DNA of 64,000 nucleotides from a virus. The position numbers and the translations under genes are program-made. The number at the start of each line of letters is the position of its first letter. Within the stretch, counting starts at the first letter, position 1. The stretch spans positions 1 through 64,000 of IMG/VR virus record IMGVR_UViG_3300042937_000753; one strand, written 5' to 3'. The notes beneath the pieces were generated by a model. That model made no database searches. It worked only from the letters and a program-made list of their open reading frames with translations, and was not told the origin of the DNA. This document shows, one piece after another, positions 21,001-46,481 of this stretch.

Positions 21001-21389
21001 ATGGTATTACTATAGTTACTGATGCAAGAAATTTATCAGGTTTATCTATGTATAGAAATTCATTTAAGACACCTGAACAATTAAGAATTGAAAAAGCAGG
21101 TGGTGAGGGAGTTACATATACTGACCCAACACTTCCGGGTATTGAATTAAATTATAAAATGAATCCTGTTGATCAATCTAAAATTATTGTAACAACAAGT
21201 TATGATCAATATATGGGGCCTGGAGTTGAAAGACAAAGAATTAATTTGGTGACATCCCTTTCTAATCAGGGTGCTAACTTAAAAACCAATAGAGAAAATT
21301 TCTTTGTGGGAGATCCATCAAGCGGAGATATTGATGGTCCAAAAATTCAAAAAATGCAAAATCAGTCAAGAAAACAATATGGAAACTAG
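18081..21389 (+). CDS. Ejection/cargo protein with glycine-zipper membrane segment (1102 aa)
   Basis: Helical coiled-coil composition; GALAGGLAGFAGGPFAGITVPAGSAMGGASGAFAY; no Cys; position directly before the giant virion genes as in crAss-like phages. Confidence 0.6.
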   Translation: MAQYPQGVTDFIPDYQPTQPDFNFLSNVIQLKQSQYDQNWSKLNNMYGQLLNAPLTHDESVKKRDNTFKRIDFDLKRVTGMDLSLEQNVQQATQLFRPFYEDSNLMKDMAFTKNVGFERSLGEGKRISTDEKINGEYWKGGIDAIDYRVQEFKATPYEQLTGFGDVKYTPYVNVEKMAQELALKMKIDVKSVTPQGDWMVTQKNGQQIIQPLQSLFFNAYGKDPKVRDFYSTLAYLERKNTVTRDKDKPEFGGNAELAEKDYLNRTLKVMKNQTTLNKTALVSEKNTNDKMIKKLEKSLADGTDIETTQGALDSYMQANEDILSMLKQNEDDLKMLDGNLNSTLTSQGGSKLSTDNIEELRGKVDAATGSNLLQADLNKAVMDYIGLHSEVSYDPNPFAVQRQKYQYDSSLIGQRASAQKDVALFKYNLDMDKLQYKAKADSGMYSVDPKNGKLEIKPELANVEAIVDLMAKTSGIDPKEIRQNITDLFKGEANSAKTAMASLMNELQAEGTLSNSELLYIMQDEAYSGFNMKPMLKWLKDNGSKSKDTKLDPKMGAMLMEEGMYTTSLEKEMMGNESGFEEGQAKLQSMAKGSLEDVSPEAVTRMTKRLLTVIDKKKDDVAIRENSNVKKLVTMSHSLDDYAGFRRTEIKAKEKWAQEVAGRMKGEGFEYPDAMFDDELNFVADEKAFLANVAKKHPNDIQLANGMSWGGFWNTVNSGALAGGLAGFAGGPFAGITVPAGSAMGGASGAFAYTTTGLLNMGYNALFGDGSASSTQLKNANTSSFGNPYTVSEEFEAMKEAYDTYVLDSKLTSEIPGLEQIIGSDGTGKYTKAGSGITVDPGILSPTYQHFLEIKKVLRNLDIGADDGNTYVSFAGVNATADEIDKKFQNGDDGGIVVGNEAWAAIWADLNPRTGKKDSGLGRFIVGVSPLAGEDATKAAIQFRLPADYLKKFKPDADGKGIMDIDAYNEMLKNGITIVTDARNLSGLSMYRNSFKTPEQLRIEKAGGEGVTYTDPTLPGIELNYKMNPVDQSKIIVTTSYDQYMGPGVERQRINLVTSLSNQGANLKTNRENFFVGDPSSGDIDGPKIQKMQNQSRKQYGN

Positions 21390-24300
21390 TTCAGAAAATT
21401 TGCAATCAACATTAGACACTAGTGGAAATAAAGTACCTGTTATAACTAATTTAGGATTAGCTGATGGTACATCAAATCCACTACAAGTTAAACAAATAAA
21501 TGCTTCTGTATCACCACAGTCTTCACCATTTGTAAAACCTCAAAGAAATCCTCCAACATTTGATCCAAAAGCTCAGATAGCTGCCATGCAAGAATGGCAT
21601 GATTCAACTGTAAATTCACAGCAGGATAATAATGAATGGTCAAAAGTGTCTTCATATGATTCAGGGCCAAGTGGTACTTTTTATGATAGATATGCAGATT
21701 TACAAGACTATGGTAAAGTTGAATTTCATCCTACAAGAAATAATGAAGCTATACTAAATAGAAACACTTCATTTGCGGGTGACTTATATAGAACTACTAC
21801 TCAAGCATTGCTTCCAATGATATGGAATGGTGTTAAAAGTACCTTTGCTAGTACGGCTAAAATCTTTAATGAAGGAGATTTTTTTGGTGCAGATCAAAGA
21901 CTTGCTAGAGATTATGCTAGAATTACTGCAAAGAATTCTTCTTCTAAAGATAACTTGGGTTCTTTTGTAAATAATCTAACATTGAATCTTGGTTATACCA
22001 TAGGTATAATGGGAACAGCTTTATTTGAAAACTGGGCAGGTGCTGCTGTTGGAGGTCTTACTGGTGCTAAAGCAATTAGTACAAAATCTGCTAATTTATT
22101 ATTTAAAGAATATCAGGCTGGTAAAGCTATTGATGGTTTAGGTTCATATACTCAAATGCTTGATGAACTTAAAGACATTAATGTTGTAAGACAACAATGG
22201 GAAAAAGCAAATGGTATTGGTAAAGCACAAAAGTTTATGCAATCGGCTCCTGTTAGAGCACTTAATCCATTAAGTAATTTAACTGATAATGCATATTCTA
22301 TATTAAATTCTACAGATGATTTTACTGGTTACATGAAATCAGGTAGACAATTTATGAATACCGCAGGAGCTGCTTATAGAGATTTTAGAAATATAAATTT
22401 AGCAGTAGCTGAAGCAAGGCTAGAATCCGGAATGGTTTATAATACTATGTTTGATGATCTATATAGAGAACATCAAATTAAATTTGGTAAGAATCCAGAT
22501 GAAAAAGAATTACAAGATATAATAACACAATCTAGACAAGCCGCATATGAGACTTCATTTATGAATGCAGGCTTGATATATGCTACAAATAAAATAAGTT
22601 TTGATAATATTCTTAATCCTAGAATTGGTACGCAAGGTTTTCTAAAACAAAGAATGTTAGATTGGAAAACTATTGGTGGAGGGAGATTTGGTGAACTAGG
22701 TACTATTGCATTTGATGTAGCTAAGAATGAATGGAAGTTCGGAGAAAAAGGATTTAAGACTTGGTGGAACGGTTGGAAAACAGATCCATTTCATAAATCA
22801 GTTTGGGGAACAGTTGGTTATTTTAAAAGAAATATCTTTGAAGGGGTTCAAGAATCCTTACAGGAAACAATTTCTTCAGCAAATGAAAAATATTATAAGG
22901 ATAGTTTTTATTCAACACCTGTAAGAAAAAATTTAGTATCTAAAGCTGCTTTTGGAAAAGGAACAACACCGATGTCATATTATGGTGAAGGGGTAAAAGA
23001 ACAATTTAGCAAAGAAGGTCTTGCTACATTTGCTTCGGGTTTTGCAATGGGTTCATTAGCAGGTGGATTAAATTCATCAATGACTTTTTTATATGAAAAG
23101 GCAAATCAAATATTTGATCCAAAAACATATGAGGTTTATAAAACTGAGAAAAGTAAAATAGTTGATGATCTTGTAACACAAATGAATGCCTTTGGAATTG
23201 AGGAGATGATTAATAGCCGTCTCTTTAATGGAGGTACACAAGATATATTAGCTAAAGTTCAGGAATCAGGTAACAAAAAAGAAGTAATGGATGCTGAGTC
23301 AGAAGCATTAGTACAACATTTTTCAATGTTACATGAGTACGGAGTTTTAGATATGTACTTAGATGCTGTTGAAAGTTATTCTAAATATACTGATCCTGAA
23401 TTTAAAGAAGCTTTTCCAAAAGTTGCTGATGGAGATATTAGTAAATATAGAGCTAGAATTCCTGAAGTTGTAAATAAAGCAAGAGCTATTAAGGATAGAC
23501 TTGAAACATATAATAAGATTTATCCTAATCCTATTGATCTTTCTAAAATGAACAAAGATGATGCTGATTATGAAGAAGCTTACATAATGCATCACTCTTG
23601 GAACTGGGGAATAAAATCTGCAGTATTTTATAATGAAGTTTTTGATGATGCTAGAGATAGAATGGTTAAAATAATGAATAAACATTATCAAGAAAGACCA
23701 TTGCAATCAATGACAAAAAGACAATCAGATGTTATACTTCGTCCAGAGCAAATGAGAAATGAAATGGGTCTTTTAAAAAATGAGGCTGATAGTCTTCTTG
23801 CTGTAGGGGATGCTGAATCTAAAAAAGTTGCAAAAGAAAAATTAAAACAGATTGAAGCATATGCAAAATATGTTGAAGCTTATGATGAATTTAGTGAATA
23901 CTATCATAGAGATAGATATTTTAATAGAGCTAAATCAATTGTACAGTCAGAAAAAGCTGAAGGAGAACAAGTTACAGATGAAGAAGTTGATCAATATTTA
24001 GAAGATAGATTTGGGCCAAAAAATGCAGAGACAGAGCAAGAGATTCTTTTAAACTTAGAAAAGCAATATAATAATTTATTAAAATCAATTTCAGGAAAAC
24101 CTGATGATTATCTATTTACAAATAAAGTAGATGAAGGATTTGAACTTGTACTTGATTTCTATAAGTTAAATGATGAGTCTAGAGAAATGGTTGATGTAAT
24201 AAATCTAATGAATGATCCAAAAGGATTCTTAGATGTGTATTACAAAAATGAAAAATGGATGACTGATCTTTGGTTAAAGAGAGGTGACTATTATAGAGAC

Positions 24301-27300
24301 ATTGTAACTCAAGAATTATCTCAAATTGAAGATAATGGTTTGCTTAACTATTTAGCTAACCAGGGTATCTATATGAATGCTAATGACTTCATTCTCTACA
24401 GAGATCAAGACATTCCGCCAAAAGAATTCTATGATGAAAAAAAACAGTTAGTAATTCCTGAAGGAAGTTTAGCATATGATAGATACTATGCAATACTTAA
24501 TAGATACAAAGGTCTTAAAACAATTGAAGGTATGGCTAGAAAACAAGCTATGCAAGCAGAACTAGAAGTTAGAATTGCACAACTTGCTGAAAGAAGAGAT
24601 AAAGAGATTGAAAGATTAGGTACTCAGTTTGAAGAAAACTTAGTAGAAACAACAGGAGAAACAAGAGAAGCTTGGGAGAAAAAAGAACCTGCTACAACTC
24701 AAGGTAGAACACAAGAACAAATTGATGAAGACATAAAAGGTTTAAAAGCTAATTTACAACTTATTGAAGATGCTGAATCAATAGATGAAATATATCAATT
24801 ATATGAAGCCTTTGCTGAGCAAGAATTAATTCCTGAAAACTACTTTGCACTTATTGATGAGGCAATGGTAGCTAATGAAAAAGAAGCTAAAAAATTCTTT
24901 AAATCAACAAAAGATTCTGGAGCTGATGTAGAAACAAGACAGAAAGCAACTCAGCATAAAATTACATTGCCTCAAGTTTTAAAAGATAAGATTGCTGCAG
25001 TTACTTCTGAAGAAGCTGTTACTGAAGTAGATGATACACGTCCTATTGAAAATACAGAAGCATGGAAAGATTATCAGAAACAAGTTAAAACTACAACTGA
25101 AAGATACCAAACTTTAATTGATAAACTTAAAGCAGAAAGAATTGATTCTGAAGAAGAGGTTCCTAGACCACCATCTGCTCCAGCAAAAAGAGATAGTAAA
25201 AAAGATGTAGATTTAAATGCTCCTTGGAATGAACTTCCTGAAGATTTAAAAAATGAATTACAGGAAGCCTTTAATATTTTCTTGACATCTCCTGCACCAG
25301 AAGGATTAGGTAAACCAGCTGATTTACAAAGGATTAATCCTATGCAATATGAAATGTTGCGTAACAATTGGTTAGAACAACAAAAAGGTCTTATTGATGA
25401 TTATAATAATAGAGCTGTAGATGAAAAATCAGCTCAACCCGTAATTAAATATTTGACTCTTAAGAAACCTATTGATAAATATGGTCTTACTCAACTTAGA
25501 GCCATGACTGATGAACTTCAATCCATGTTGGATAGAAATTCTAATTATGATGGTACAGCCTTAACTAATTTGGAAAAGGCTGATATGAAGAATGATGTAA
25601 AAGAACTTCAAAAATATATTGTTTACCGAAGAGCAAACTATATGCCTAAAGATAATACTGAAAGAGTATTTAGAATCTTTGAGGAAATGGTAGTTAACAA
25701 GCAGAATGGAGTCTCAAGAATTCTTGATGCTGCAGGAAACACAACGGGTTATGAATTTCCAGGACAAGATGGTAAACCATTACGGGTTACTAAAGTTACT
25801 GAGGAGATTGAAATTAAAATGACTGGTAAAGAACCATACTTATATGATGGAGTTAAAGAAACATACATAGGTAAAGATGGTAAACCTAGAGGTGGTCAGT
25901 TATTAAATCTATTTAGAGAACTTAAAAATGATGACTCTATAAAGACAGATGCTGATAGACTGAATTTATTTATGTCCAGTCTTGAGACTACATTAAAAGA
26001 TAATAAATTACCTCAGTTAAAAAGTCAAAAGAAAGTTGATGCAATAAGAAAAGCTCTTACAAATAATTTTACAGAACAGACTCTTATTGCTGTAGTTAAA
26101 GATGTTGCTCACAGTGAATCAACTACTGCTGGAAACACTTTAGATACAATGACAAGAGATTCATTTAAAACTAATTCTGATGGAGGGTTTGTTAAACCTG
26201 AAAAACCAGCAAGAATGGCTCAGGATGCATATGATAATTTATTTGGAGATTTTGGAGTAATCACTCAATTACAAGATTCTGTAATAGATGGTAAGTATGA
26301 GATTCTTTCATCTGATGTAATTATTTATGATCCTACTTTACTTGAGTCAGGTCTTGTAGGAGCAATGGACTTAATTGCTTTTGATAAAACTACAGGTGAT
26401 ATTAAGATTATTGATATCAAAACAGGTAAGCCAGAAAACTGGAAAAACTTTGATACTGAAAGTGAGTACAGTAAAAAACTAAACTATAGATTACAGCAGT
26501 CAATTTATAGAGCCTTGTTATTCAACATGACAGGAATATTAGCTAAGAGTATATCAATACTTCCTATTGCTATTACTACTGATATGGAAGGTAACATTCT
26601 TTCTGCAGAATCTGCAGCTAAAGTTGTAAATGGAAATGCTATTAGAGAACTTAAAACTAAAAAGCTTACATTAGAAAATGCATCTAAACCTGATGTAGAT
26701 AAAATTAATACTTTAGAAAAACAGATTAAAGAGCTAGAAAAAGCAACAACAGTTCCTCTTCTACCAGTAGAAGATAGTGTATTAGCTGAGAATGGTATTG
26801 TAATGAAAGCACCAAACCTACCTGAAAACTTAAAACCTGAAGGGGTAGGTGAAAAAGCTTCTGAACCTAACTTAACTGAAGAACAGAAAAAAACAGAAAT
26901 TAAAAGATTAAAATCTGAAATTGCTAAAATAGATAAGAAGTTAGCTGGTCTTAAAGATGGTGGGATCATAAATGTTGGAGACATGGTAACAACATCTCCT
27001 GCTTATGACAAACTAATTAATAAAAGAAAACAGTTTGAAGATAAGTTATCTGAGTTTGAGACTAAAGAAAATAAAGAAAAAGATGAAGATGAAATAAGTG
27101 ATGAAATCAAAGCCATGAAAAAAGGTGTTAAGGAACTTTTCCCTCAACCTGAAACAATCACTTCTGAAATATTTAAAAGTCTTCTTGCTAAAATAAGAAA
27201 TTCTCAAACATTGGCAGACCTTGAAAATGCTTACAATGATGCTATTGTAGAAATTATTGGTGAGTCAGATATTACATTTAATGATATGGTTGAGAATGTT

Positions 27301-27744
27301 TATGAGATTAGAAAATTAGCTTTAAATGTAGATACTTCTCAAGAGGAAAACATTAATAAAGGTGATTATCTTATTAGTAAAAATCCTATCTTTACAGGAT
27401 CCGTAGATGAGATTGTAGTTGTTAAAAAAGTAGCTGATGGTAAGGTTACTATAAAAGAACTTGAGGGTACAAGACAAAAAACTTTTACAATAGCTCAGAT
27501 TGCTGCAGGCTTTAGCAAAACTACAGAAGATGCATTAAAAATTGAACAAGAAGAAACTATGGGCTCTACTCCAGATGAAAAATTAAATTCTACTATATCT
27601 AAAAATAGTCTTGAAGAGTTTTCTAAAAATGCTGATCTTATAGATAAGGCAAAACAAAATATTGGAACATCAAGAAAAGATAGATTAGCTGCATTAAAAA
27701 ATGCATCTAAAGATGATAACATTAATAATTGTAAACCTAAATAA
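21379..27744 (+). CDS. Giant ejection protein with TM segments and PD-(D/E)XK nuclease domain (about 2121 aa)
   Basis: Likely start is ATG 21379 (A-rich context, overlaps upstream stop). GAMDLIAFDK..KIIDIKTG..YRLQQSIY nuclease motif near 26350-26520; hydrophobic segments in the N-terminal third; single Cys four residues from the C-terminus. Confidence 0.7.
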   Translation: METSSENLQSTLDTSGNKVPVITNLGLADGTSNPLQVKQINASVSPQSSPFVKPQRNPPTFDPKAQIAAMQEWHDSTVNSQQDNNEWSKVSSYDSGPSGTFYDRYADLQDYGKVEFHPTRNNEAILNRNTSFAGDLYRTTTQALLPMIWNGVKSTFASTAKIFNEGDFFGADQRLARDYARITAKNSSSKDNLGSFVNNLTLNLGYTIGIMGTALFENWAGAAVGGLTGAKAISTKSANLLFKEYQAGKAIDGLGSYTQMLDELKDINVVRQQWEKANGIGKAQKFMQSAPVRALNPLSNLTDNAYSILNSTDDFTGYMKSGRQFMNTAGAAYRDFRNINLAVAEARLESGMVYNTMFDDLYREHQIKFGKNPDEKELQDIITQSRQAAYETSFMNAGLIYATNKISFDNILNPRIGTQGFLKQRMLDWKTIGGGRFGELGTIAFDVAKNEWKFGEKGFKTWWNGWKTDPFHKSVWGTVGYFKRNIFEGVQESLQETISSANEKYYKDSFYSTPVRKNLVSKAAFGKGTTPMSYYGEGVKEQFSKEGLATFASGFAMGSLAGGLNSSMTFLYEKANQIFDPKTYEVYKTEKSKIVDDLVTQMNAFGIEEMINSRLFNGGTQDILAKVQESGNKKEVMDAESEALVQHFSMLHEYGVLDMYLDAVESYSKYTDPEFKEAFPKVADGDISKYRARIPEVVNKARAIKDRLETYNKIYPNPIDLSKMNKDDADYEEAYIMHHSWNWGIKSAVFYNEVFDDARDRMVKIMNKHYQERPLQSMTKRQSDVILRPEQMRNEMGLLKNEADSLLAVGDAESKKVAKEKLKQIEAYAKYVEAYDEFSEYYHRDRYFNRAKSIVQSEKAEGEQVTDEEVDQYLEDRFGPKNAETEQEILLNLEKQYNNLLKSISGKPDDYLFTNKVDEGFELVLDFYKLNDESREMVDVINLMNDPKGFLDVYYKNEKWMTDLWLKRGDYYRDIVTQELSQIEDNGLLNYLANQGIYMNANDFILYRDQDIPPKEFYDEKKQLVIPEGSLAYDRYYAILNRYKGLKTIEGMARKQAMQAELEVRIAQLAERRDKEIERLGTQFEENLVETTGETREAWEKKEPATTQGRTQEQIDEDIKGLKANLQLIEDAESIDEIYQLYEAFAEQELIPENYFALIDEAMVANEKEAKKFFKSTKDSGADVETRQKATQHKITLPQVLKDKIAAVTSEEAVTEVDDTRPIENTEAWKDYQKQVKTTTERYQTLIDKLKAERIDSEEEVPRPPSAPAKRDSKKDVDLNAPWNELPEDLKNELQEAFNIFLTSPAPEGLGKPADLQRINPMQYEMLRNNWLEQQKGLIDDYNNRAVDEKSAQPVIKYLTLKKPIDKYGLTQLRAMTDELQSMLDRNSNYDGTALTNLEKADMKNDVKELQKYIVYRRANYMPKDNTERVFRIFEEMVVNKQNGVSRILDAAGNTTGYEFPGQDGKPLRVTKVTEEIEIKMTGKEPYLYDGVKETYIGKDGKPRGGQLLNLFRELKNDDSIKTDADRLNLFMSSLETTLKDNKLPQLKSQKKVDAIRKALTNNFTEQTLIAVVKDVAHSESTTAGNTLDTMTRDSFKTNSDGGFVKPEKPARMAQDAYDNLFGDFGVITQLQDSVIDGKYEILSSDVIIYDPTLLESGLVGAMDLIAFDKTTGDIKIIDIKTGKPENWKNFDTESEYSKKLNYRLQQSIYRALLFNMTGILAKSISILPIAITTDMEGNILSAESAAKVVNGNAIRELKTKKLTLENASKPDVDKINTLEKQIKELEKATTVPLLPVEDSVLAENGIVMKAPNLPENLKPEGVGEKASEPNLTEEQKKTEIKRLKSEIAKIDKKLAGLKDGGIINVGDMVTTSPAYDKLINKRKQFEDKLSEFETKENKEKDEDEISDEIKAMKKGVKELFPQPETITSEIFKSLLAKIRNSQTLADLENAYNDAIVEIIGESDITFNDMVENVYEIRKLALNVDTSQEENINKGDYLISKNPIFTGSVDEIVVVKKVADGKVTIKELEGTRQKTFTIAQIAAGFSKTTEDALKIEQEETMGSTPDEKLNSTISKNSLEEFSKNADLIDKAKQNIGTSRKDRLAALKNASKDDNINNCKPK

Positions 27745-27746
27745 AA

Positions 27747-30700
27747 ATGGCTTGTCAACTTTATACAGAAAATGATATAAGTGCATTATACTCTTTAGTG
27801 TATGGTGAGATTATGGATAGAATTCAGGATCCAAAACTTGGTAAGTTTGATAACAAAGCATTAGATAAGTTTATCAAAGATATCTATAAAGAGTTTAAAG
27901 ATGAGCCTAACGGTCTTCTTTATGTGCAGGCTATTCCTGACATGTTGGATATTGTTAAGAATGATCTTCAGATAAAGAAGTATCTTCTAAATGATGCTAA
28001 CTTGGATTTAAATAATGTTGCAAAACTATCTCTTGATTTTGAAGACTTAGATAATGTAATAAAGTTTATAACTCCAAAGACAGTTCAAAAGACTAAGAAA
28101 GAAGTTGACGGTGAAATAAAAAAAGCAAACAAAAATTCTAAGACTGTTGTACAAAATAATAATAACAATGAAATATGGTCTGCTGTAGAAGAAAAGGCTA
28201 AAGTTGATTATCCAGATAAAACAACAGGGAATATTGCCGTGGCAAAAAATCCTGAAGCAATGAGTGAATCAGAGAGAAATCTAATTGATCCACAAAAAGG
28301 GCTTTTCTATAAAGTTATCAAAACTGTTATATGGGCAGCAAGAAGAAGAGGTAAGAGTGATAATGCCATGCTTGGTGATATTCCAGTTATGCTTAAAGCT
28401 CAATCTATAAAAACTTTAGACCCTGCAGATTTGACTGATGATGATATTACTTTCCTTACTAAAAATAAAGGTTATGATATTAATGTTGCTATTGTTTCAG
28501 ATAGTAGTGGTGTCCCAATTAGATTTGATGAAGAAGGTAATGTAGTTGAAGAAGGTGGTAGAATTGTATATCAATATATTAGACCTGTTATAAATAGAGC
28601 AGGTAAATTATATCTTGGTAACAGATCCGGTTTCTTATATAATCTTGTTCCTGCTGAAACTCTTCTTAAAAGACAATTAGCTAATGAAGCTAAGGATGGC
28701 AAACTATATGGTCAAGTTGAAAGAGAAGCTGAGTTAGCTAAAATTAAGAGAAAGCAAATTCAGAAAATGAATGATTTAGCTAAACTTAATGAAACTCTAT
28801 CTCTTCAGGATGAACCAGTAATGCTTCCAATAACTGGTGGTAGTTACGGTATTGTTGAACATAAGTCAGAGTTATTATCTAATACAGATTTTGTCAATGA
28901 TTTAGAAATGATTTATACTCATGACTCAGGTGATCTTGAAGGAATGAGTTACTTTATGACTAATAGAGTAAGTGCTGGTGTAGCTGTAGATAATAGGATT
29001 TATTTACAGAGAATGGATATGCCTAAAGAACTTGCTGCAAATATAGCTAAAGTGTTAACAACTAAAGCATTACTTAATGGAGAAGCTTTAAGTCCACAAG
29101 CAAGACTTGCACATTATGATACTTTTCTTTCTAATAGAACAAAAGGTAATAATATTAAGGTTGAGATTAAACAAGAACTTGGACAGAATGTACTTAAAGT
29201 TACCTTGATGGATCCACTTACTGGTGATGCCAGCGTTGTTGATTTAGAATCAGAAGATGCAGAAAAAATGATTGCTGATCATTTAATGGAATCCAAAAAA
29301 ATTAAAGATAAAGAAGGTAAAGTTGTAGCCGTGTATCCAGCAAATTTAAGTTATATGAAATCTTTTGCTGTTGATGGAGCTATACAAAAAGGTGTAAAAT
29401 ATACTGACTATACTTTTGATATAAGCAAAACAGGAACTCAAGTAATTAAAGAAGTTCAAAAAGATTACTTTGATTTTATTAAACCATTAGCTAAAGTAGA
29501 TTATACTACTGATGGTGCAGCATACTTTGTAGCAATCAATGCTTATTTAGAATTTGCGGTTCCATTTAATTTTGAAACTGCAGAAGAAAACTTAATTGAT
29601 ATTGGTGTTCCTTCTGATGAACTTTTGACATCTAATGATGTAGATAATGGTAATAAGAAAGCAAAACCTGTTAAAGTTGAAATAGAAGAAAAAGATGAAG
29701 AGACAGGTAAAGGTTTTACTATTGAAACTAAGGTAAGTACAATAGCAAACGACAGAGTTTTAGTTGCAAATTTAAATGAGGCTGATGCTGTTTTTGGATT
29801 AGGTACAACCTTTGATACAAAAGATGAAAAGATTTCTAGAGATAGATCTGGTAAAGAAAACAAATGGTATGGAGTAAAGCTTGGTACTAAAGCTAATGCA
29901 CCTAAAAATTTAAAACCTCCAACAGATGCTATTAATCAAATGGTTAATAATCTATCTCAATTAAAAGGCGGAGTTGTAAATATTATAGGTAATGATATTG
30001 CCCAACTAACTAAAGAGGGCTATAGTCAAAAAGATATAGATACTTATGTCTATAATATTTTAAGTGAGGTTGTTAAACAATTTCCTATTACCAAAATCAT
30101 TAGTAATGGTCAGACTGGAGTAGCTGAAGCATCAATTAAAGCAGCTAAAAGACTTGGTATTCCAGTTAAAATTAGAGCTTTTCAAGGTTATCAATTAAGA
30201 AAAGCAGCTCCATATGCAGCAAGTGGTATTAAAACTACTAAAAATACTAGAGCAGACTTCTTAAGTAGATTCTTTAGTAAGTCATCTAAAACATATAAGA
30301 AAGCTGCCGCTAAGGTAGAAGAAACTAAAGAAGATAAAACTACTACTGTACCTAAAACAATTGAGGTTAAAGCAAGAGCTGTAGAAGTAACTAAGACTCC
30401 AGAACAACAAAAGGTATCTGATGCTAAGATAAATAGATTAGCTATTGATGATTTACTAGATGGTTCAGATATGATTCCAGATGTTCCCCTTAATAGAAAG
30501 AAGCGGGTATCTGCAGTTATGGATCAACTTTATGGTAAACAAGGGTGGCAAGAAGTACAAAATTGGTGGAAGTCTTCTCCTTTAAAAAATGTTGTGGATG
30601 TTGAAAGACTAGGTTTAGTATTTAACTCTGATGCTTATGCAACATTTATGTCAGCGGGATCTATGCTTGCTGATGCTGCAGTTAAATTACGTGCACAAGG

Positions 30701-38900: not shown

Positions 38901-38903
38901 AAG

Positions 38904-41900
38904 ATGTTTTGTGAATCTAAATCTACAGTATTAAAAGATCTTAAGGAAAAAGGAATACTTGGTGAATACAATGATGTACTTAATACAATTGAGTTTGAAA
39001 AATTTAATAAAGAATTTACCAGATTCATTGAGTTAAAATATAATCTAAACACTGGAGGTGAGCTTGCCTTTAGCACATATGAAACACAAACACGTTTTCC
39101 ATATAGTTCTAGATACTATAGAGATGATATACAAACAACCATATATGCTCAAACTAATGAACCATTGTTTGAAGCTCTTGATGAGGAAAGGATAAAAGCT
39201 GATATCAAAAATGAAGTAAAAGACCGTGATGTTTTAAATGAACCTGAAGCTGAATATCCAGAAGATGATTTAATGAACCCAATGTTCATGAGAGAGCCTT
39301 CTTATCTTCAACATAGATTTAACAGTGAAACTAAAAAAGCAATGTTATCTTTTATAGAAGGTCTCAATATTAAAGTTGTAGATGGTCTTGATGAAATTAT
39401 CCCTAGTAGCAGAAGAACATGGATAGATAAAAATGGTAATATGCAAACTAGAGAGGATCCTTTAGCTGCATTTGATCTTCTACAAAAGTTTTTGGCTTTG
39501 AAAGAAAATATATCTGATAAAAATGTTTCTATGCAGACAGCCAATATTATTTATAGTTTTCTTGGTAAAAAATCTAAATTAGGTATTGAACTTTGGAAAG
39601 GTATAAATAGTTGGAGTAAGTATCAAGAAGTCTATGATAAGTATAATAATAAAAAACTTAGAGGACAAGAAGAACAGGTTGTAGAACAACCTATGCAATA
39701 TGGTGAGAATAGTTTAGCTGAAGATAAAATAAAAGAAGTCTATGAATATGATCCAGCTAGATTTAATGCATGGGCACATAAACAAACTATAATTGAGTTT
39801 CTTTCTAGCATGCTTATTATTGGAATTGACAATAATTATATTGGTAAAAAAAGAACTAATCCTGATATTGCTAAAGAATATTTTGAAAGCCTTGGTTATA
39901 AAGATAAGTATGCAAAAGATTGGATTACCCGTATGTTTAATAGATTCATGAATTGGATTAAAGAACATATATTAAATAATAAAGCAATTACAATTTATAA
40001 AGAAGCTGAGTTGAGAGATACTGTACTTGATATTGTTGATGATGTTTATAAAAAGAACTATATCAAGTTTATTAGAAGTTATTATGAAAACCCTACAACT
40101 GGAAAATTCTTTAATGCTAAGGGTCAGGAGTTTGAACAAAAATTTTATGATGAAAGTCTTAAAAGAGATCCCTTTGCAAAAGAAATAGTTGATAAATTAT
40201 TCAATGCTCCATATGAATATTTTTTAAGTGGCTCATTAGTTCTTAGAAAATACGGTAGAGTTATAAGAGCTTTAAGTGAAGACTTACATGATATTGATGG
40301 TGTAATAAGTCTACAACAATTTGAAAGTGAAAAAAATGCTACTCAGTTTTTAAAATGGATTGAAGAAAGAGGTGTTCCTTTAAGTAGAGAAAGAACTACT
40401 AAAAACTCTAAGCAGTTTATAAAAGAACTGATGCCTTATTTAGAAGGACAATCTTGGTATGAAGATTTGAAAAAACAATTTCCTACTTGGACTTTTAAAG
40501 CTGCTTTCATTGGAAAAGATCATAAGAAAGGTGAATCAGTTACTATTTCTGGATATGTTGAACATCCTACAGAAACAGTTCTAGTTCAGAATGCAGATGG
40601 AAGTGCTGCTACAGATTTCTTTAATGCTGAAGATAATGGTAAAACTCTTCCTAAGAGATATGTACTTGATTTCTTTTTGAGAACACAAGAGGGTAATTAC
40701 CCAGAGGTGTTTGATCATTATTATAAAGACTGGAAACAAATCTTTGAAGCTAAGATCAACATGGGCCGTGGAAAAGACTTGGCTGATTTAATATATTTTC
40801 AACCATTTAGAGAAGATAAATACAAGTATACTAATAAAGGTTTTAGATACTTTACATTTGCTGATGATGTAATTACAAATATGCCTGACATAACTGAATT
40901 TAAAGTTGATGAGCAAGCTATAAAAAATCAAAGATCTAAAGAAGCAGCTAATGCATTAGGTCAAAAAATTGCACAAGCTTTAGGAGTACAATATATGTAC
41001 ATAACAGATGCTCAAGCAAAACAGATTCTGGAGTCTAGAAAAAAAACATACAATGGTGAACCAGCTTTTTTCTTTGGAGGAACAGTTTATATTGTTGGTG
41101 ATAATGTAAACTTTGACACTGTACTCCATGAATTATCACATCCTTTATTAAGAGCAATTTTTAAAGAAAATCCAAAACTCTTTAATAACTTGTATGAAGC
41201 ATTAAAAGCTACTACAGAAGGGGATATAATAATCCAGCATGTTAAAGATAATTATCCAGAGCTTAAAGAAGAAAGCCCTCTATTTAAAGAGGAAGCTCTT
41301 GCTTATGCACTACAAAGAAAAGCAGCAAATAAAGTAACTAATCAAATTGAGTCATTAGGTTTTGAAGGATTTATTGGAAAGTTACTTGATGCATTAAGAA
41401 ATATGCTTAAAAAAATCTTTGGATCTAAAACTAGAGTATCTGAGATTGATGTAAATACCTCAATTGATAAGCTTGCAGATATGCTCTTAGAAGATTCATT
41501 TGAATATGAAACTGATTTTGTTACCAATGATGATCTTGTTGCATATGCCAGGGAGATAAAAGAAATGGCTGAAAAGCTTACTAAAGATGTCAAAGCTGAA
41601 AAAATACAAGAGGGTATCAATGAAATGTATGCTACCACTCAATTAATATATGAGAAAGCTATAAACTTTAGAACTAGATCTCCGCAGTATCAAAGAATGT
41701 TAAAAGAAGCATTGTTTGTAAAAGGAGAAACAAATGAATTACTTCCTAAAATTAAAAGAATTTTGTTTGGATATCAGACAGTGTCGGGTCAAGAAAAATT
41801 TACTATTGATGATGCTATCAAAAATGCAGTAGAAGCAGAAAGAATGAGAAATGAAGATCTTATTAATAGAGCCCGCAGTTTTGTAAACACAGTTGGAATT

Positions 41901-44900
41901 GTAAATAATATTGCTAAAAATATCTATCAAGATCTTGATGCTATGGATAGAAGCAATTCATTTAATTCTAGAGATGCTATAGCCTTATTATTCTTATATA
42001 GAAGTTCAATTAGATCATACAATGATATGTTTAATTCATTTGATGAAATGATTGCTAATGAAGAAGGTTTTGATATAAATCAGACTAATGATATTATTGA
42101 CCTTATTAATGAGGCTAAGAATAACTTAATGAGATCTGATAAAAAAATCCGTGACATATATAAAGCAAACAGTGTTGATTTCTATGTAGAGATAACAGGT
42201 TATATGAATGATTTCTTAAAGGAAGAGCTTGGTAAGAACTTAAGAAATGCATTAACAGATAAGCTTTCTGAAAAAGAAATAGATGACTTGTACAATATTG
42301 CAATTACTCAAAAATTAGATGACCAAACTGCTGAAGAATTATATACCAATCTAGAAAAGAAAGGTGTTGAATCTAAATATATCAAAAAATTTATTGATGA
42401 TTATAATGCATTCTTGGTTAATCAAGATAAAATTACTGATGGTTTGTCAGGTAAACTAAGAGATGTAAGTTGGTTTAATAGATTCTTTGAGTCATATACA
42501 TCTAGTAATGATCCTATAGTAGGTGGATTAGCTATTTTTATCAATGATCAAAAAACAGAAGCTTCTCAAAGGGCCCTGGATAAGTCATATAAATTTAGAA
42601 AAGAACTTGAACCTCTCTTACAAAAAGTAGGTTATACAACTTTAAAAACCAGACAGTTAACTGATATGTTAATGTTTAAGGATAAACTATTATATATAGA
42701 TCCTAAAACAAAAAAACCTATTGAAAAAGAAGTATTTACATTCTTAAATGAGTTTGGTAATGGTTGGAGATATAAACAAGATTTGCTTGAATATCAAGTT
42801 GATGAAGCTTTAGCATCAGAAGATGATGATAAAATTAGAACTGCTACTAATGCATTAAAACAGTTTAAAAAAGATTACATGTGGGATGATTACATTCCAG
42901 AATTTTATGAAAAAGATGCTGTCTTTGAAAAATATGGTGAACTTGGTAAAATGGCATGGCTTTCTAGGAAGATGGCTCTTGACAAGTTTAATAATGAATC
43001 CAATGAGATTAGTGATGAGCTTGAAAGATTTCAAAAATATTCTACTCTTCAAGAGTTATGGAGAGAATATCAAATGCTTTCTTCATTAAAATATGCAGAC
43101 GGAACTAGTAAAGTAGATGACCCTGCTACTGGTGTTTATGATTTGTCAATTGCAAAAATACTTCTTGAACATAAAGAATCTACTAAAGATTACTATGAAT
43201 TTGCTCCAAGACCTGGTTCATTACAAACATCATTTAATCAGTTTTTAAGTTTAGCTGAGTCAAATGGTGAAGATTTAGTTAAGGCTAAAGATGAATGGAT
43301 CAAACAAAACATTAGAATTGCATATACTCAAGAGTTTTATGATTCTAGAAAAGAATTAACAGCTAAACTTAAACAAATTCAAGACAAGGTAAATTCTGTT
43401 ATTGGTTCTGAGTTTGATATTAGTAATGCATACAATGAGATTTATAATTTAATGTTTGCATATAAAGATCAACAAGGGCAACCAATTCCATCTGAATTAG
43501 GCGTAGATAAAATGAAGATGATTAAAGAACTTAATCAAAAAATCATTAACTATAAAGCTGCTTTTGATACTAAAACTGGTTTATCAAATGAAGATGCTGA
43601 AGAACTTGAGCTATATATTGCAATCAATAAGAAAAATCCTGAAAGGTTAACTCCAGAGCAAAAACTAAGATATAGAGAGTTGTTAATGCAACAAACTAAA
43701 ACAGGTTTGTCTCTTGCTGAAGTTGCTACTATGCAAAGTGTTTATGCTGAATTATCTTCTCTTACACAAAAAGTTTCTACTGAATACTATGTAGATTCAA
43801 TAAATGAACATTTACAAAGATTGAATGTAGCCACACTTACTGTAGATCAAGTAGACAATTTTATTAATAGTGATGAGATGAAAAATCTTCTTGCTAGTGA
43901 CGGTAAATTTGTAGATTGGTTTGTAACTAACCATGTATCTAGAAAAGTAAAAAATAGAAAAACCCGTAAAATGGAGCTTAAATATGAAAGATCCATGGCA
44001 AACTCTATTTCTATTCCTAAGAATGAAAAGTATTATGAAAAAACCACCCTCTTTAATGAGTTAACTGGTAAAGATGAAACATTCCGTGGTCTACCAAATG
44101 CAAGACACTCTACATATAAAGTAAAAGATAAATACAGAACAGGTTATGATCCTACTACAGGAGAAGTAAAACTAGAAGTGGGAGTTCATATTGATAATAA
44201 AGGACAACCCTTACCAAGAGCTTTTAAAGTAGGAGATAAGAACAGTGCTCTTAATGATGATTTCATCAATAAAGATTACATGAGATTAAAGGAACAACCA
44301 AACAGTCCTAGATTTCAGTTACTTGAATTAATGAAGAAAGCACACCTATCATTCCAAGAAGATAAATCTAATAAGTCTAAGCTTTATTTAGACATGCCTA
44401 GATATGTTCTTAGAGATAATTTATCTAGATTACAAGCTGGTAAATTTGGTGAAAGATACAATCAGATTAAAAAAGGTATAACTCAGTCATTAAAAGATAG
44501 CTTTGGACAAGCCGTTGATGAGAATGAACTTGAGCATAACTATGAGAGAGATAATAATCTTGAAGAATATAGAATGGTTAATACTGATTTAAATTCTGAA
44601 GAAGTTTCTTATATTCCTGTTTCTGGTATGTATAATCTTGAGACAGATAATACTGATCCAGATGTTATTCGTGGAATGTTCAAATACTTACTTTCTCTTG
44701 AGACTCAAAGTAAACTTCATGAAACATTACCTCTTGTTAATTCAATCTTGGAAACATTAGCAGATCCTGCTAATGCACCTAAGACTCCAAATACCTATAG
44801 TAAAACCATTAAGAAAATAAAAGGTAAACTTCAGCATACTGTAAAACCAGGAGCAAGTAATAATAGACTTGGTCAAGTAAGATCTCTTATTGAAAGAGAA

Positions 44901-46481
44901 TACCATGGTAAACAATTCAGCGGGGAAGGAAGCTCTATCTATTTAGATAAATTCATGGGTCAATTACAAAAACTTTCTGCAAGAGCTTCATTAGCTGTTA
45001 ATATTTCTTCGGATTTAAAAAATAGATACGGTCAGATTGTACAGAACATGCTTGAATCTGCTGGAGGTGAGTTTATTACACCAAAAGATTTAGCTCAAGC
45101 TAGACTATGGGCTGCAACAACAATGATAGAATGGACATCAAAAAGTGTTTACACTAAAGGAGTACCTGCATTATCATCTCAAATCATAGAGATGTTTGAC
45201 TCAGCATTTAAATTCAAAGATGACTTTGGTAGATCTGTTTCTAGAAACATGGGTAAAGATATGATGAATGGTGAGTGGATGTATAACATCAGAAAGAATC
45301 TGGAGATGGAGGCTGCCTTACAATTATTTGGGGCATTTCTTAATGGACAAAAAGTAGAACAGAAACTTTCTAATGGTAAAACAATCACTGTTAATTACAA
45401 AGATGCATGGCAAGTTAATAAAGATACTGGTATAGCTGAATTAAAACCCGGTATTGATCCAGCATGGAGTAATAGAACAATTACACATGATTTTCAAAGA
45501 GGTCAAACTTTGGAGGATATAGCAGCAATGTATGGTGTTACTGTAGATGAAATTAAAGAAAGAAATAAAATTGTAAATGTTTTAGAATTTGAAGATAATC
45601 AAGAAATAATTATTGCTAAATCAGAAAAATTCAAACAATTTAGAAATAAATTTCAAGGTGTATCCCATAAATTATATGGTTCATATGATGACTTTGCACA
45701 AGCAGAGGGTAATCTATACTTACCATATAGAATGTTTACTTTCATGAGAAAGTGGTTTGTCCCTATGCTTACAAATAGATGGGGTGCTCGTGTTGAAATT
45801 GAAGATGGTAAATTCTGGTCTCCCAAACTCAATAAAAGATATGATTGGATGACTGGTAAAACTAATCTTGGTTTCTATCTTAATGCCTATATTGGAATGA
45901 AAGAGTTAATTAAGAGTAAAGGAAAGTATTGGTCTTATATGCCTGAAGATCAAAAGAGAGATCTAATGAAAACATTAGCTGAATCATTATTTATTATTAC
46001 ATCAGCTCTCTTAGCTTCAATGTTATTTGGATATGATCCTGATGATAAAGAAAGATTTAAAAAATTAGAAGCTAGATCTGGAGCTCTTGGTACTGATGAT
46101 TTTAAAACTTGGGGTTTCATACAAAATCATATGTTGATCTTATTATTAGGTACACAAATGGAATCTTCAGCTTTTGTTCCGCTTCCAACAATGTTTGGAG
46201 TAAATCTTGGAGCAGATGACTATATTAAAATTGCTACAACTACCACATCTTCATTTGGAAATACCGTAGGGTTATATGCAAAAATGATGGAGGATGTATT
46301 TAAATTAATGACTTTTAATGATAAAGCTTATTATAGTAGAAAAGAAGGTGAATATTGGTGGCAACAAAAGGATGTACCTAAAATATATGGTAGATTACTT
46401 AAATCTGTTGGTATCACTGGTTCAACAGGAGATGTAACTCAATCACTTGAAGGTCTTGAAAATGCAGGTAAACTTAAATAA
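38904..46481 (+). CDS. Giant ejection protein with nucleotidyltransferase, zincin and LysM domains and C-terminal TM segments (2525 aa)
   Basis: YFLSGSL..LHDIDGVI (NTase); VLHELSH..EEALA (zincin); HDFQRGQTLEDIAAMYGVTVDEIKERNKI (LysM); hydrophobic SLFIITSALLASMLFG; single Cys at residue 3. Confidence 0.7.
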   Translation: MFCESKSTVLKDLKEKGILGEYNDVLNTIEFEKFNKEFTRFIELKYNLNTGGELAFSTYETQTRFPYSSRYYRDDIQTTIYAQTNEPLFEALDEERIKADIKNEVKDRDVLNEPEAEYPEDDLMNPMFMREPSYLQHRFNSETKKAMLSFIEGLNIKVVDGLDEIIPSSRRTWIDKNGNMQTREDPLAAFDLLQKFLALKENISDKNVSMQTANIIYSFLGKKSKLGIELWKGINSWSKYQEVYDKYNNKKLRGQEEQVVEQPMQYGENSLAEDKIKEVYEYDPARFNAWAHKQTIIEFLSSMLIIGIDNNYIGKKRTNPDIAKEYFESLGYKDKYAKDWITRMFNRFMNWIKEHILNNKAITIYKEAELRDTVLDIVDDVYKKNYIKFIRSYYENPTTGKFFNAKGQEFEQKFYDESLKRDPFAKEIVDKLFNAPYEYFLSGSLVLRKYGRVIRALSEDLHDIDGVISLQQFESEKNATQFLKWIEERGVPLSRERTTKNSKQFIKELMPYLEGQSWYEDLKKQFPTWTFKAAFIGKDHKKGESVTISGYVEHPTETVLVQNADGSAATDFFNAEDNGKTLPKRYVLDFFLRTQEGNYPEVFDHYYKDWKQIFEAKINMGRGKDLADLIYFQPFREDKYKYTNKGFRYFTFADDVITNMPDITEFKVDEQAIKNQRSKEAANALGQKIAQALGVQYMYITDAQAKQILESRKKTYNGEPAFFFGGTVYIVGDNVNFDTVLHELSHPLLRAIFKENPKLFNNLYEALKATTEGDIIIQHVKDNYPELKEESPLFKEEALAYALQRKAANKVTNQIESLGFEGFIGKLLDALRNMLKKIFGSKTRVSEIDVNTSIDKLADMLLEDSFEYETDFVTNDDLVAYAREIKEMAEKLTKDVKAEKIQEGINEMYATTQLIYEKAINFRTRSPQYQRMLKEALFVKGETNELLPKIKRILFGYQTVSGQEKFTIDDAIKNAVEAERMRNEDLINRARSFVNTVGIVNNIAKNIYQDLDAMDRSNSFNSRDAIALLFLYRSSIRSYNDMFNSFDEMIANEEGFDINQTNDIIDLINEAKNNLMRSDKKIRDIYKANSVDFYVEITGYMNDFLKEELGKNLRNALTDKLSEKEIDDLYNIAITQKLDDQTAEELYTNLEKKGVESKYIKKFIDDYNAFLVNQDKITDGLSGKLRDVSWFNRFFESYTSSNDPIVGGLAIFINDQKTEASQRALDKSYKFRKELEPLLQKVGYTTLKTRQLTDMLMFKDKLLYIDPKTKKPIEKEVFTFLNEFGNGWRYKQDLLEYQVDEALASEDDDKIRTATNALKQFKKDYMWDDYIPEFYEKDAVFEKYGELGKMAWLSRKMALDKFNNESNEISDELERFQKYSTLQELWREYQMLSSLKYADGTSKVDDPATGVYDLSIAKILLEHKESTKDYYEFAPRPGSLQTSFNQFLSLAESNGEDLVKAKDEWIKQNIRIAYTQEFYDSRKELTAKLKQIQDKVNSVIGSEFDISNAYNEIYNLMFAYKDQQGQPIPSELGVDKMKMIKELNQKIINYKAAFDTKTGLSNEDAEELELYIAINKKNPERLTPEQKLRYRELLMQQTKTGLSLAEVATMQSVYAELSSLTQKVSTEYYVDSINEHLQRLNVATLTVDQVDNFINSDEMKNLLASDGKFVDWFVTNHVSRKVKNRKTRKMELKYERSMANSISIPKNEKYYEKTTLFNELTGKDETFRGLPNARHSTYKVKDKYRTGYDPTTGEVKLEVGVHIDNKGQPLPRAFKVGDKNSALNDDFINKDYMRLKEQPNSPRFQLLELMKKAHLSFQEDKSNKSKLYLDMPRYVLRDNLSRLQAGKFGERYNQIKKGITQSLKDSFGQAVDENELEHNYERDNNLEEYRMVNTDLNSEEVSYIPVSGMYNLETDNTDPDVIRGMFKYLLSLETQSKLHETLPLVNSILETLADPANAPKTPNTYSKTIKKIKGKLQHTVKPGASNNRLGQVRSLIEREYHGKQFSGEGSSIYLDKFMGQLQKLSARASLAVNISSDLKNRYGQIVQNMLESAGGEFITPKDLAQARLWAATTMIEWTSKSVYTKGVPALSSQIIEMFDSAFKFKDDFGRSVSRNMGKDMMNGEWMYNIRKNLEMEAALQLFGAFLNGQKVEQKLSNGKTITVNYKDAWQVNKDTGIAELKPGIDPAWSNRTITHDFQRGQTLEDIAAMYGVTVDEIKERNKIVNVLEFEDNQEIIIAKSEKFKQFRNKFQGVSHKLYGSYDDFAQAEGNLYLPYRMFTFMRKWFVPMLTNRWGARVEIEDGKFWSPKLNKRYDWMTGKTNLGFYLNAYIGMKELIKSKGKYWSYMPEDQKRDLMKTLAESLFIITSALLASMLFGYDPDDKERFKKLEARSGALGTDDFKTWGFIQNHMLILLLGTQMESSAFVPLPTMFGVNLGADDYIKIATTTTSSFGNTVGLYAKMMEDVFKLMTFNDKAYYSRKEGEYWWQQKDVPKIYGRLLKSVGITGSTGDVTQSLEGLENAGKLK

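Follow-up and report, generated by a model that had tools for sequence, protein, structure and literature searches.

A window of 64,000 nucleotides of viral DNA (IMG/VR record IMGVR_UViG_3300042937_000753) was analyzed. It covers the opening 64 kb of a phage genome on a single contig of 87.5 kb. The plus-strand block of the window codes for a row of very large proteins. Three consecutive members of this row, here named A, B and C, comprise 8,363 residues (954 kDa) with four cysteines in total, all of which are located at the two junctions where the C-terminus of one protein faces the N-terminus of the next. This terminal cysteine pattern is real, highly non-random and conserved across Crassvirales, and it co-varies with the fusion and fission of the three genes. 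A, B and C are best explained as three cargo modules that are packed in the crassvirus capsid and ejected into the host, and that are made as one or two polypeptides in some lineages. We consider it probable that the facing cysteine pairs are head-to-tail inter-chain disulfides, giving a linear A-B-C thread; for crassviruses, the bond itself is what we infer.

Cysteines of the three giant proteins

The three genes, their cysteine codons and the gene upstream of A, which serves as a negative control, are the following.

18081-21389, plus strand: upstream cysteine-free, cargo-like open reading frame (ORF) of 1102 amino acids (aa), with no cysteine on either side of its junction with A
21379-27744, plus strand: protein A, 2121 aa, 240 kDa; by ORF translation its only cysteine is residue 2118, and it ends in NNCKPK
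27730-27732, plus strand: TGT codon of A Cys2118, C-terminal side of the A/B junction
27747-38900, plus strand: protein B, 3717 aa, 421 kDa, crAss-like virion RNA polymerase by sequence; its only cysteines are Cys3 and Cys3717 (the last residue)
27753-27755, plus strand: TGT codon of B Cys3, N-terminal side of the A/B junction
38895-38897, plus strand: TGT codon of B Cys3717, the last residue, inside the conserved tail [ND]P[LF]xC
38904-46481, plus strand: protein C, 2525 aa, 293 kDa; its only cysteine is Cys3
38910-38912, plus strand: TGT codon of C Cys3, N-terminal side of the B/C junction

Translation bore out the original prediction that the three giant proteins hold four cysteines at exactly these places, and that neither the outer ends of the series (N-terminus of A, C-terminus of C) nor the 1102-aa upstream protein has any. 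The 2293-aa ORF at 4896-11777 also contains zero cysteines. The start of A at 21379 is backed by the N-termini of its homologues; longer starts (21304 and 21334) bring one extra cysteine, which lies inside the overlap with the upstream gene.

The cysteine frequency of the three proteins (4 in 8,363 aa) is far under the proteome background of 1.24%, calculated from the other ORFs of the same 87.5-kb contig (132 cysteines in 10,614 aa). About 104 cysteines are expected in A, B and C versus four found, with a Poisson probability of ~3e-39 for four or fewer. The chance probability that four cysteines fall one in each of the facing 8-residue segments is ~1e-10.

Two gene boundaries of the window show further features. 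At 38895-38912, B and C share a reading frame and are separated by TAA and one sense codon (AAG), and a single stop read-through would fuse them. At 21379-21389, the start of A lies inside the end of the preceding gene, an overlap of 11 to 14 nucleotides in the closest clade of the window. The end of this upstream gene (..QYG[NK]) is conserved, and its boundary with A never carries a cysteine.

Identity and domains of A, B and C

A tblastn search with B matched the RNA polymerase genes of crAss phages and g066 of phage phi14:2. A profile built from 42 B homologues matches PDB 6VR4 (6vr4_A, phi14:2 gp66) with an E-value of 1.3e-18, and a phmmer search of PDB with the single B sequence gave no match. 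By these sequence relationships, B is a divergent crAss-like virion RNA polymerase, and its orthology and its place in the virion gene block suggest that it is packed in the virion and ejected. PHROGs and Pfam searches with A, B and C returned almost no matches. The following motifs and domains were located in B and C.

35736-35750, plus strand: DFDID, catalytic motif of the virion RNA polymerase, B residues 2664-2668; D2664, D2666 and D2668 are invariant in 42 sequences
30753-30767, plus strand: HEAWH, zincin-type motif, B residues 1003-1007; H1003, E1004 and H1007 are invariant
41127-41141, plus strand: HELSH, zincin motif, C residues 742-746
45495-45578, plus strand: LysM domain, C residues 2198-2225

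In protein A, residues 1658-1714 form a weak PD-(D/E)XK-like stretch. The phi14:2 preprint names DFDxD as the catalytic motif; in the available part of its text, a zincin domain is mentioned only for the C orthologue gp65.

Conservation of the terminal cysteines among homologues

Homologues were taken as the best 120 of 172 matches for B, the best 120 of 185 for C and all 52 matches for A. Their identities range from 37 to 85% (37 to 82% in the B list). M1, C3 and C3717 of B are invariant in the 42 aligned sequences. A cysteine among the last 3 residues, in the tail given above, is found in 120/120 of the listed B homologues, and 115/120 start with M[AT]C; the other five have different starts, and four of them are clearly truncated (2166-3102 aa). 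No internal cysteine occurs in 118 of these 120 proteins.

All 52 A homologues carry a cysteine within the last 8 residues, and 50 have no other. The two exceptions are the longer start call of the window's own protein, which is also the only A entry (1/52) with an N-terminal cysteine, and one protein with a single internal cysteine. An N-terminal cysteine is present in 116/120 of the listed C homologues, as Cys3 in 113 and as the same MxC behind a longer start call in three, and the four without it are shorter forms with other starts. One internal cysteine is found in 8/120 of them and a C-terminal cysteine in 0/120. On this recount, internal cysteines are thus absent or rare in homologues, as the original prediction needed them to be.

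Conservation of the terminal 60-70 residues extends well beyond the cysteine itself. This fits an explanation in which the terminal segments only dock non-covalently, with the cysteines used for packing or transient thiol chemistry and no stable bond in the particle. A co-fold of B residues 3498-3717 (220 aa) with C residues 1-160, made for the B/C pair only, points in the same direction, as contact between the B tail and the C head is weakly favored though no bond was modeled. The support is weak (score 0.57 versus 0.26 for the best control, with no contacts given); at least 60% of the contacts are shared between runs, and the predicted local distance difference test value (pLDDT) of the partner is 65-67. 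Of 80 solved complexes, 58 reached the co-fold mark, as did 2 of 110 mismatched pairs; with scores of 0.60 or below, just 7 of the 80 solved complexes did so, along with both mismatches that passed. Packing alone fails to explain an invariant two-sided cysteine in proteins that purge cysteine, over this range of identities and across phage families. Among the full-length forms examined, moreover, the terminal cysteine is never replaced by Ser, Ala or Val. Docking without a bond therefore seems unlikely.

Junctions in related viral loci

A search of IMG/VR with the B alignment retrieved 77 loci, 70 of them unique after seven duplicates were dropped. Single-sequence searches of viral contigs with the C-terminal 399 aa of A and with the N-terminal 400 aa of C retrieved no relatives. 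Junctions were tallied by an automatic rule restricted to matched-strand ORFs of 700 aa or more that follow one another directly. This rule yielded 159 junctions, with cysteines on both sides at 115, on neither side at 42 and on one side at two. The 42 cysteine-less junctions comprise 41 between the upstream cysteine-free protein and A, plus one split inside A (locus L062). Both one-sided junctions are due to frameshifted ORFs, and the true N-termini, MACNS in L038 and MVNCS in L085, begin the reading frame that directly follows the upstream stop. After inspection, the cysteine pair is present at 117/117 A/B and B/C junctions, whereas the pre-A/A junctions have it at 0/41, with no cysteine on either side. 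As expected, the terminal cysteines are conserved in orthologues and enriched at facing termini only, both here and at 27/27 breaks in GenBank genomes, described below.

The N-terminal cysteine is at residue 3 (89 junctions), 4 (12), 5 (12), 6 (1) or 7 (1), and the C-terminal cysteine lies 0 (48), 1 (42), 2 (17), 3 (7) or 9 (1) residues from the end. The giant ORFs of the related loci contain 264 cysteines in 530,933 aa (0.05%), compared with 1.27% in smaller ORFs on the other strand.

The pattern could be put down to chance, to amino acid composition or to translational coupling or another nucleotide-level signal at gene boundaries, since the window genes abut within a few bases and cysteine codons are somewhat less frequent in AT-rich genomes. 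The probabilities calculated above for depletion and placement speak against chance. A nucleotide-level boundary signal is refuted by the use of both cysteine codons at the junctions (TGT 212, TGC 18), by stop-to-start distances that vary from -11 to +1837 nucleotides, by the occurrence of the A gene on the opposite strand in some phages, and by the equally tight pre-A/A boundary without cysteines. Explanations of this kind are extremely improbable.

Locus L062 differs from the other loci in that A is split at 7629-7632 into ORFs of 1613 and 789 aa, which overlap by ATGA and have no cysteine at the break. About 70 residues of this A are missing compared with a 94%-identical relative. The frameshift in L085 (9470-9662) falls within the first 60 codons of B, where ten A stand in a row, and that in L038 (20836-21645) lies in the N-terminal part of C; each may be a sequencing error or real.

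Fusion and fission of the modules in crassvirus genomes

The module was read in 20 GenBank crassvirus-type genomes, which contain 27 breaks in all. A, B and C are separate proteins in seven genomes, A and B are fused in ten, and B and C are fused in three.

A, B and C separate: phi14:2, crAss001, PhiCrAssBcn1, DAC15, IAS, cr128_1 and cr116_1
Cysteines in phi14:2: Cys1797 of 1797 in g067; Cys3 and Cys2179 of 2180 in g066; Cys3 in g065
Cysteines in crAss001: only Cys2339 of 2341 in gp47; Cys5, Cys1334 and Cys2404 of 2412 in gp50; only Cys5 in gp49
AB fused, C separate: cr1_1, cr4_1, cr130_1, cr131_1, cr108_1, cr118_1, cr53_1, cr10_1, cr7_1 and the cultured Flavobacterium phage Fpv20
A separate, BC fused: crAss002, cr110_1 and cr11_1; A ends in Cys and the fused BC starts with MSC

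Cysteines are present on both sides at 27/27 breaks, at two of them only after the annotated start is moved to an internal MSC. At each module break, a cysteine is found in roughly the last 10 residues of the upstream protein and another at residue 3-7 of the downstream protein. The modules phi14:2 gp67-gp66-gp65 and crAss001 gp47-gp50-gp49 are orthologous to A-B-C and follow the same rule. No terminal cysteine pair occurs at fused junctions. BLAST shows that the long proteins contain A-like and B-like, or B-like and C-like, parts, and the fusions are real. In fused AB proteins the N-terminal cysteine is absent and a cysteine lies 0-10 residues from the end, and the next protein has Cys3 or Cys5. 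The cleanest AB-fused case is Fpv20, in which a protein of 4419 aa has a single cysteine at residue 4418 and the next protein starts with MAC. Phages from the gut have more internal cysteines (up to 26 or more in one protein), and the terminal pairs are still kept. The cultured phages with the pattern are phi14:2, crAss001, DAC15, crAss002 and Fpv20.

The MSC start of BC is the annotated one in cr11_1, and it lies 32 residues inside the annotated start in crAss002 gp33 and 14 residues inside it in cr110_1 gp40. This internal MSC agrees both with the start annotated for the orthologue in cr11_1 and with the MxC rule seen across the order, so crAss002 gp33 (L010 15627-15725) and cr110_1 gp40 (L016 17502-17546) probably begin further downstream than annotated.

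In 6/7 genomes with separate A, B and C (all except phi14:2), gene A is encoded on the other strand and its C-terminal cysteine is kept. The original prediction that the proteins are linked in gene order does not hold as a general rule, since A is on the opposite strand in crAss001-like phages with the cysteine retained; it is the order of the modules that decides.

A split intein or protein trans-splicing was considered for these terminal cysteines and rejected, as no Hint or intein Pfam family was found in A, B or C at E-values up to 0.01. Cysteines at 0-9 residues from the C-terminal end and at residue 3-7 presumably do not fit the positions used by inteins.

Comparison with known ejection systems

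The closest known counterpart is in the cyanopodophage A4 (Anabaena phage A-4L). In the cryo-electron microscopy structure of its pre-ejectosome, gp27 Cys1715 and gp26 Cys5 form a disulfide in the virion, and the C-terminal helix of gp27 is docked in gp26 (PNAS 2025, PMC12002296). In the GenBank record, gp27 (1717 aa) has Cys1715 as its only cysteine (NPCQF) and gp26 (1114 aa) has only Cys5 (MSKHC), while the A4 DNA polymerase has 13 cysteines. A4 and crassviruses thus share consecutive ejection-protein genes with a lone cysteine near the upstream C-terminus and another near the next N-terminus. Unlike the crassvirus module, A4 has two linked proteins rather than three and no RNA polymerase, and it belongs to another phage family, Saffermanviridae. 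Its authors describe the bond as stabilizing a folded pentameric ring, not an ejection thread (PMC12002296). BLASTP of A4 gp26, gp27 and gp28 against crass proteins detected no similarity (best E-value 0.45).

A metal bridge, also named as an alternative in the original prediction, is another way to join the protein ends. A metal ion would be bound by the facing thiolates, aided by nearby carboxylates or the free amino terminus, and would clamp the ends; such a bridge needs no oxidant and could form in the reducing cytoplasm, and acidic residues often stand just before the C-terminal cysteine (EEDPFKC, DDLEC). Each terminus has one cysteine, with no CxxC pair and no conserved His, so that the ligands of inter-protein zinc clasps or hooks (CxxC or Cys/His from each partner) were not found. 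The shift of the N-terminal cysteine between residues 3 and 7 is a misfit with a fixed chelate geometry, and the sole solved case of the signature, A4, is a disulfide. A site made of four cysteines is rejected, as phages with fused AB or fused BC keep just two terminal cysteines. A metal bridge is accordingly quite unlikely.

The terminal cysteines could also bond other partners and act as anchors, either to copies of the same protein (A-A, B-B or C-C) or to portal or tail proteins. Partners cannot be assigned from sequence alone, and crAss001 virions hold structural disulfides in the tail and portal vertex, where many of them are inter-subunit (PMC10172136). Such bonds would not require the two sides of a break to carry cysteines together, as they always do, with no one-sided case left after inspection of the 117 junctions and 27 breaks. 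Nor would they account for the outer ends, which have no cysteine except in the longer start call of the window's A. In A4 the partner is the adjacent ejection protein (PMC12002296). We regard bonding to other partners as very unlikely, and a disulfide between adjacent modules is preferred.

The phi14:2 trio was found in virions by mass spectrometry (GenBank notes). The phi14:2 preprint also reports the three proteins in virions and states that in some phages they form one fused polyprotein, "likely cleaved"; it thus proposes cleavage of the fused form, not linkage of the split form, and the words "cysteine" and "disulfide" appear in it 0 times. In crAss001, gp47, gp49 and gp50 were likewise detected in virions by mass spectrometry and are unresolved in the capsid cargo zone (PMC10172136). 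The available text of that paper contains "cysteine" 0 times, and the disulfides it describes concern tail and portal-vertex proteins, none of them cargo cysteines.

In Schitoviridae (N4 gp50-gp52 and DEV gp71-gp73), cysteine is suppressed in ejected proteins, which has been related to passage through the envelope (PMC11445570). These phages resemble crassviruses in having a giant virion RNA polymerase with co-ejected proteins and near-zero cysteine (PMC11445570). They differ in that the N4-type polymerase is a single chain with no cysteine and hence no terminal pairs, and in that the polymerase fold and family are unrelated. A 2026 paper on N4 raises the question how the three proteins of crassviruses correspond to the N-terminal domain, core and C-terminal domain of the single-chain N4 polymerase (PMC13434306).

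Among open-access main texts and bioRxiv, no description of the terminal cysteine rule in crassvirus cargo was found, and the A4 paper was the only one found on a disulfide between ejection proteins. Head-to-tail linked ejection proteins were already solved in A4; what is new here is the proposed three-module chain around a virion RNA polymerase, which co-varies with gene fusion and fission.

Proposed disulfide-linked chain

In the mechanism that we propose, each facing cysteine pair would be an inter-chain disulfide, and terminal docking segments would hold the two protein ends together. The bond would form in the assembled particle, after exit from the reducing cytoplasm, and its product would be a single thread of about 954 kDa, A-S-S-B-S-S-C, with linear topology. 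With cysteines at the extreme termini, only short stubs (at most 9 and 6 residues) would protrude, so that a narrow tail channel could let the linked chain through as if it were one polypeptide. The near-complete loss of other cysteines would prevent wrong cross-links. After delivery, the links would be reduced by thiol systems of the host cytoplasm, which would set the three proteins free. The reading as a thread is drawn because the cysteines are at the extreme termini, other cysteines are purged and the pair is lost on fusion.

Two-chain translocated toxins offer a functional parallel, as one interchain disulfide ties their chains during translocation and reduction in the target cytosol frees the active part. 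They would work alike if the disulfide reading holds, but there is no homology, their chains are cleaved from one precursor and the bond is not at the extreme termini.

The head-to-tail disulfide reading of the original prediction is partly supported, by the comparative predictions and the A4 signature and weakly by the B/C co-fold; structural disulfides do occur in crAss001 virions, in the tail and portal vertex (PMC10172136). The bond, its time of forming, a 1:1:1 stoichiometry, threading as a single chain, exit in fixed order and reductive release are parts that we infer for crassviruses.

Several points weigh against the proposed thread. The B/C co-fold is a weak pass that gives no contacts. 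A4 offers a precedent by analogy only, as its proteins show no similarity, its bond stabilizes a folded ring, and threading of a chain is not demonstrated there either. Virions are assembled inside a reducing cytoplasm, and the habitat of gut crassviruses is anoxic. The changes of architecture are few (at least four lineages), so few independent events underlie the co-variation with fusion and fission. Fusion abolishes termini, and the loss of both cysteines would suit any terminus-specific role. The break in L062 without cysteines may be the lone exception to the rule or an assembly fault.

The packing of several giant proteins, one of them a polymerase of over 2,000 residues, and their injection through a narrow tail have been named as open questions (PMC10172136, PMC13434306). 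If the disulfide-linked thread is true, covalent linkage from head to tail would set both the order of the cargo and its stoichiometry, and would explain both the fused or split occurrence of the same modules and the extreme cysteine purge. The idea is testable directly, as five cultured phages show the pattern. The signature is legible in sequence and can flag ejected, linked proteins in uncultured phage genomes.

A wider reading is possible, and we put it forward tentatively. Crassviruses may deliver a transcription machinery of ~1 MDa as a single disulfide-stitched thread, in which the disulfide replaces the peptide bond of a polyprotein wherever the gene is cut. Reduction by the host would then separate the modules and switch on the RNA polymerase, so that early transcription would be redox-gated, and the A4 signature would make terminal cysteine pairs a general, sequence-readable mark of linked podophage ejection proteins.

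Inserts, recoded stops and a thioredoxin-like gene

The polymerase gene is interrupted exactly within the DFDxD codons (...AKAGSD/YDIDK...) in cr108_1 (L003 21864-22153), cr131_1 (L008 21150-21943) and cr116_1 (L097 about 20900-21760). Two of these three inserts contain an endonuclease-like ORF of 215-242 aa, and the inserts look like self-splicing introns. The ORF ends inside B of these three genomes were rejected as protein breaks, being intervening sequences inside the DFDxD codons, and were left out of the count of breaks. The terminal cysteine of the first B piece of cr116_1 results from read-through into the insert and is not a true terminal cysteine.

The late genes of gut Suoliviridae records (L006, L007, L008, L014 and L094) contain many in-frame stops under table 11, up to 148 per ORF, while their early genes on the other strand contain none. 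A stop codon is therefore recoded in these phages. A small thioredoxin-like gene is annotated in cr108_1 (L003 33106-33375) and cr128_1 (L095 14220-14465).

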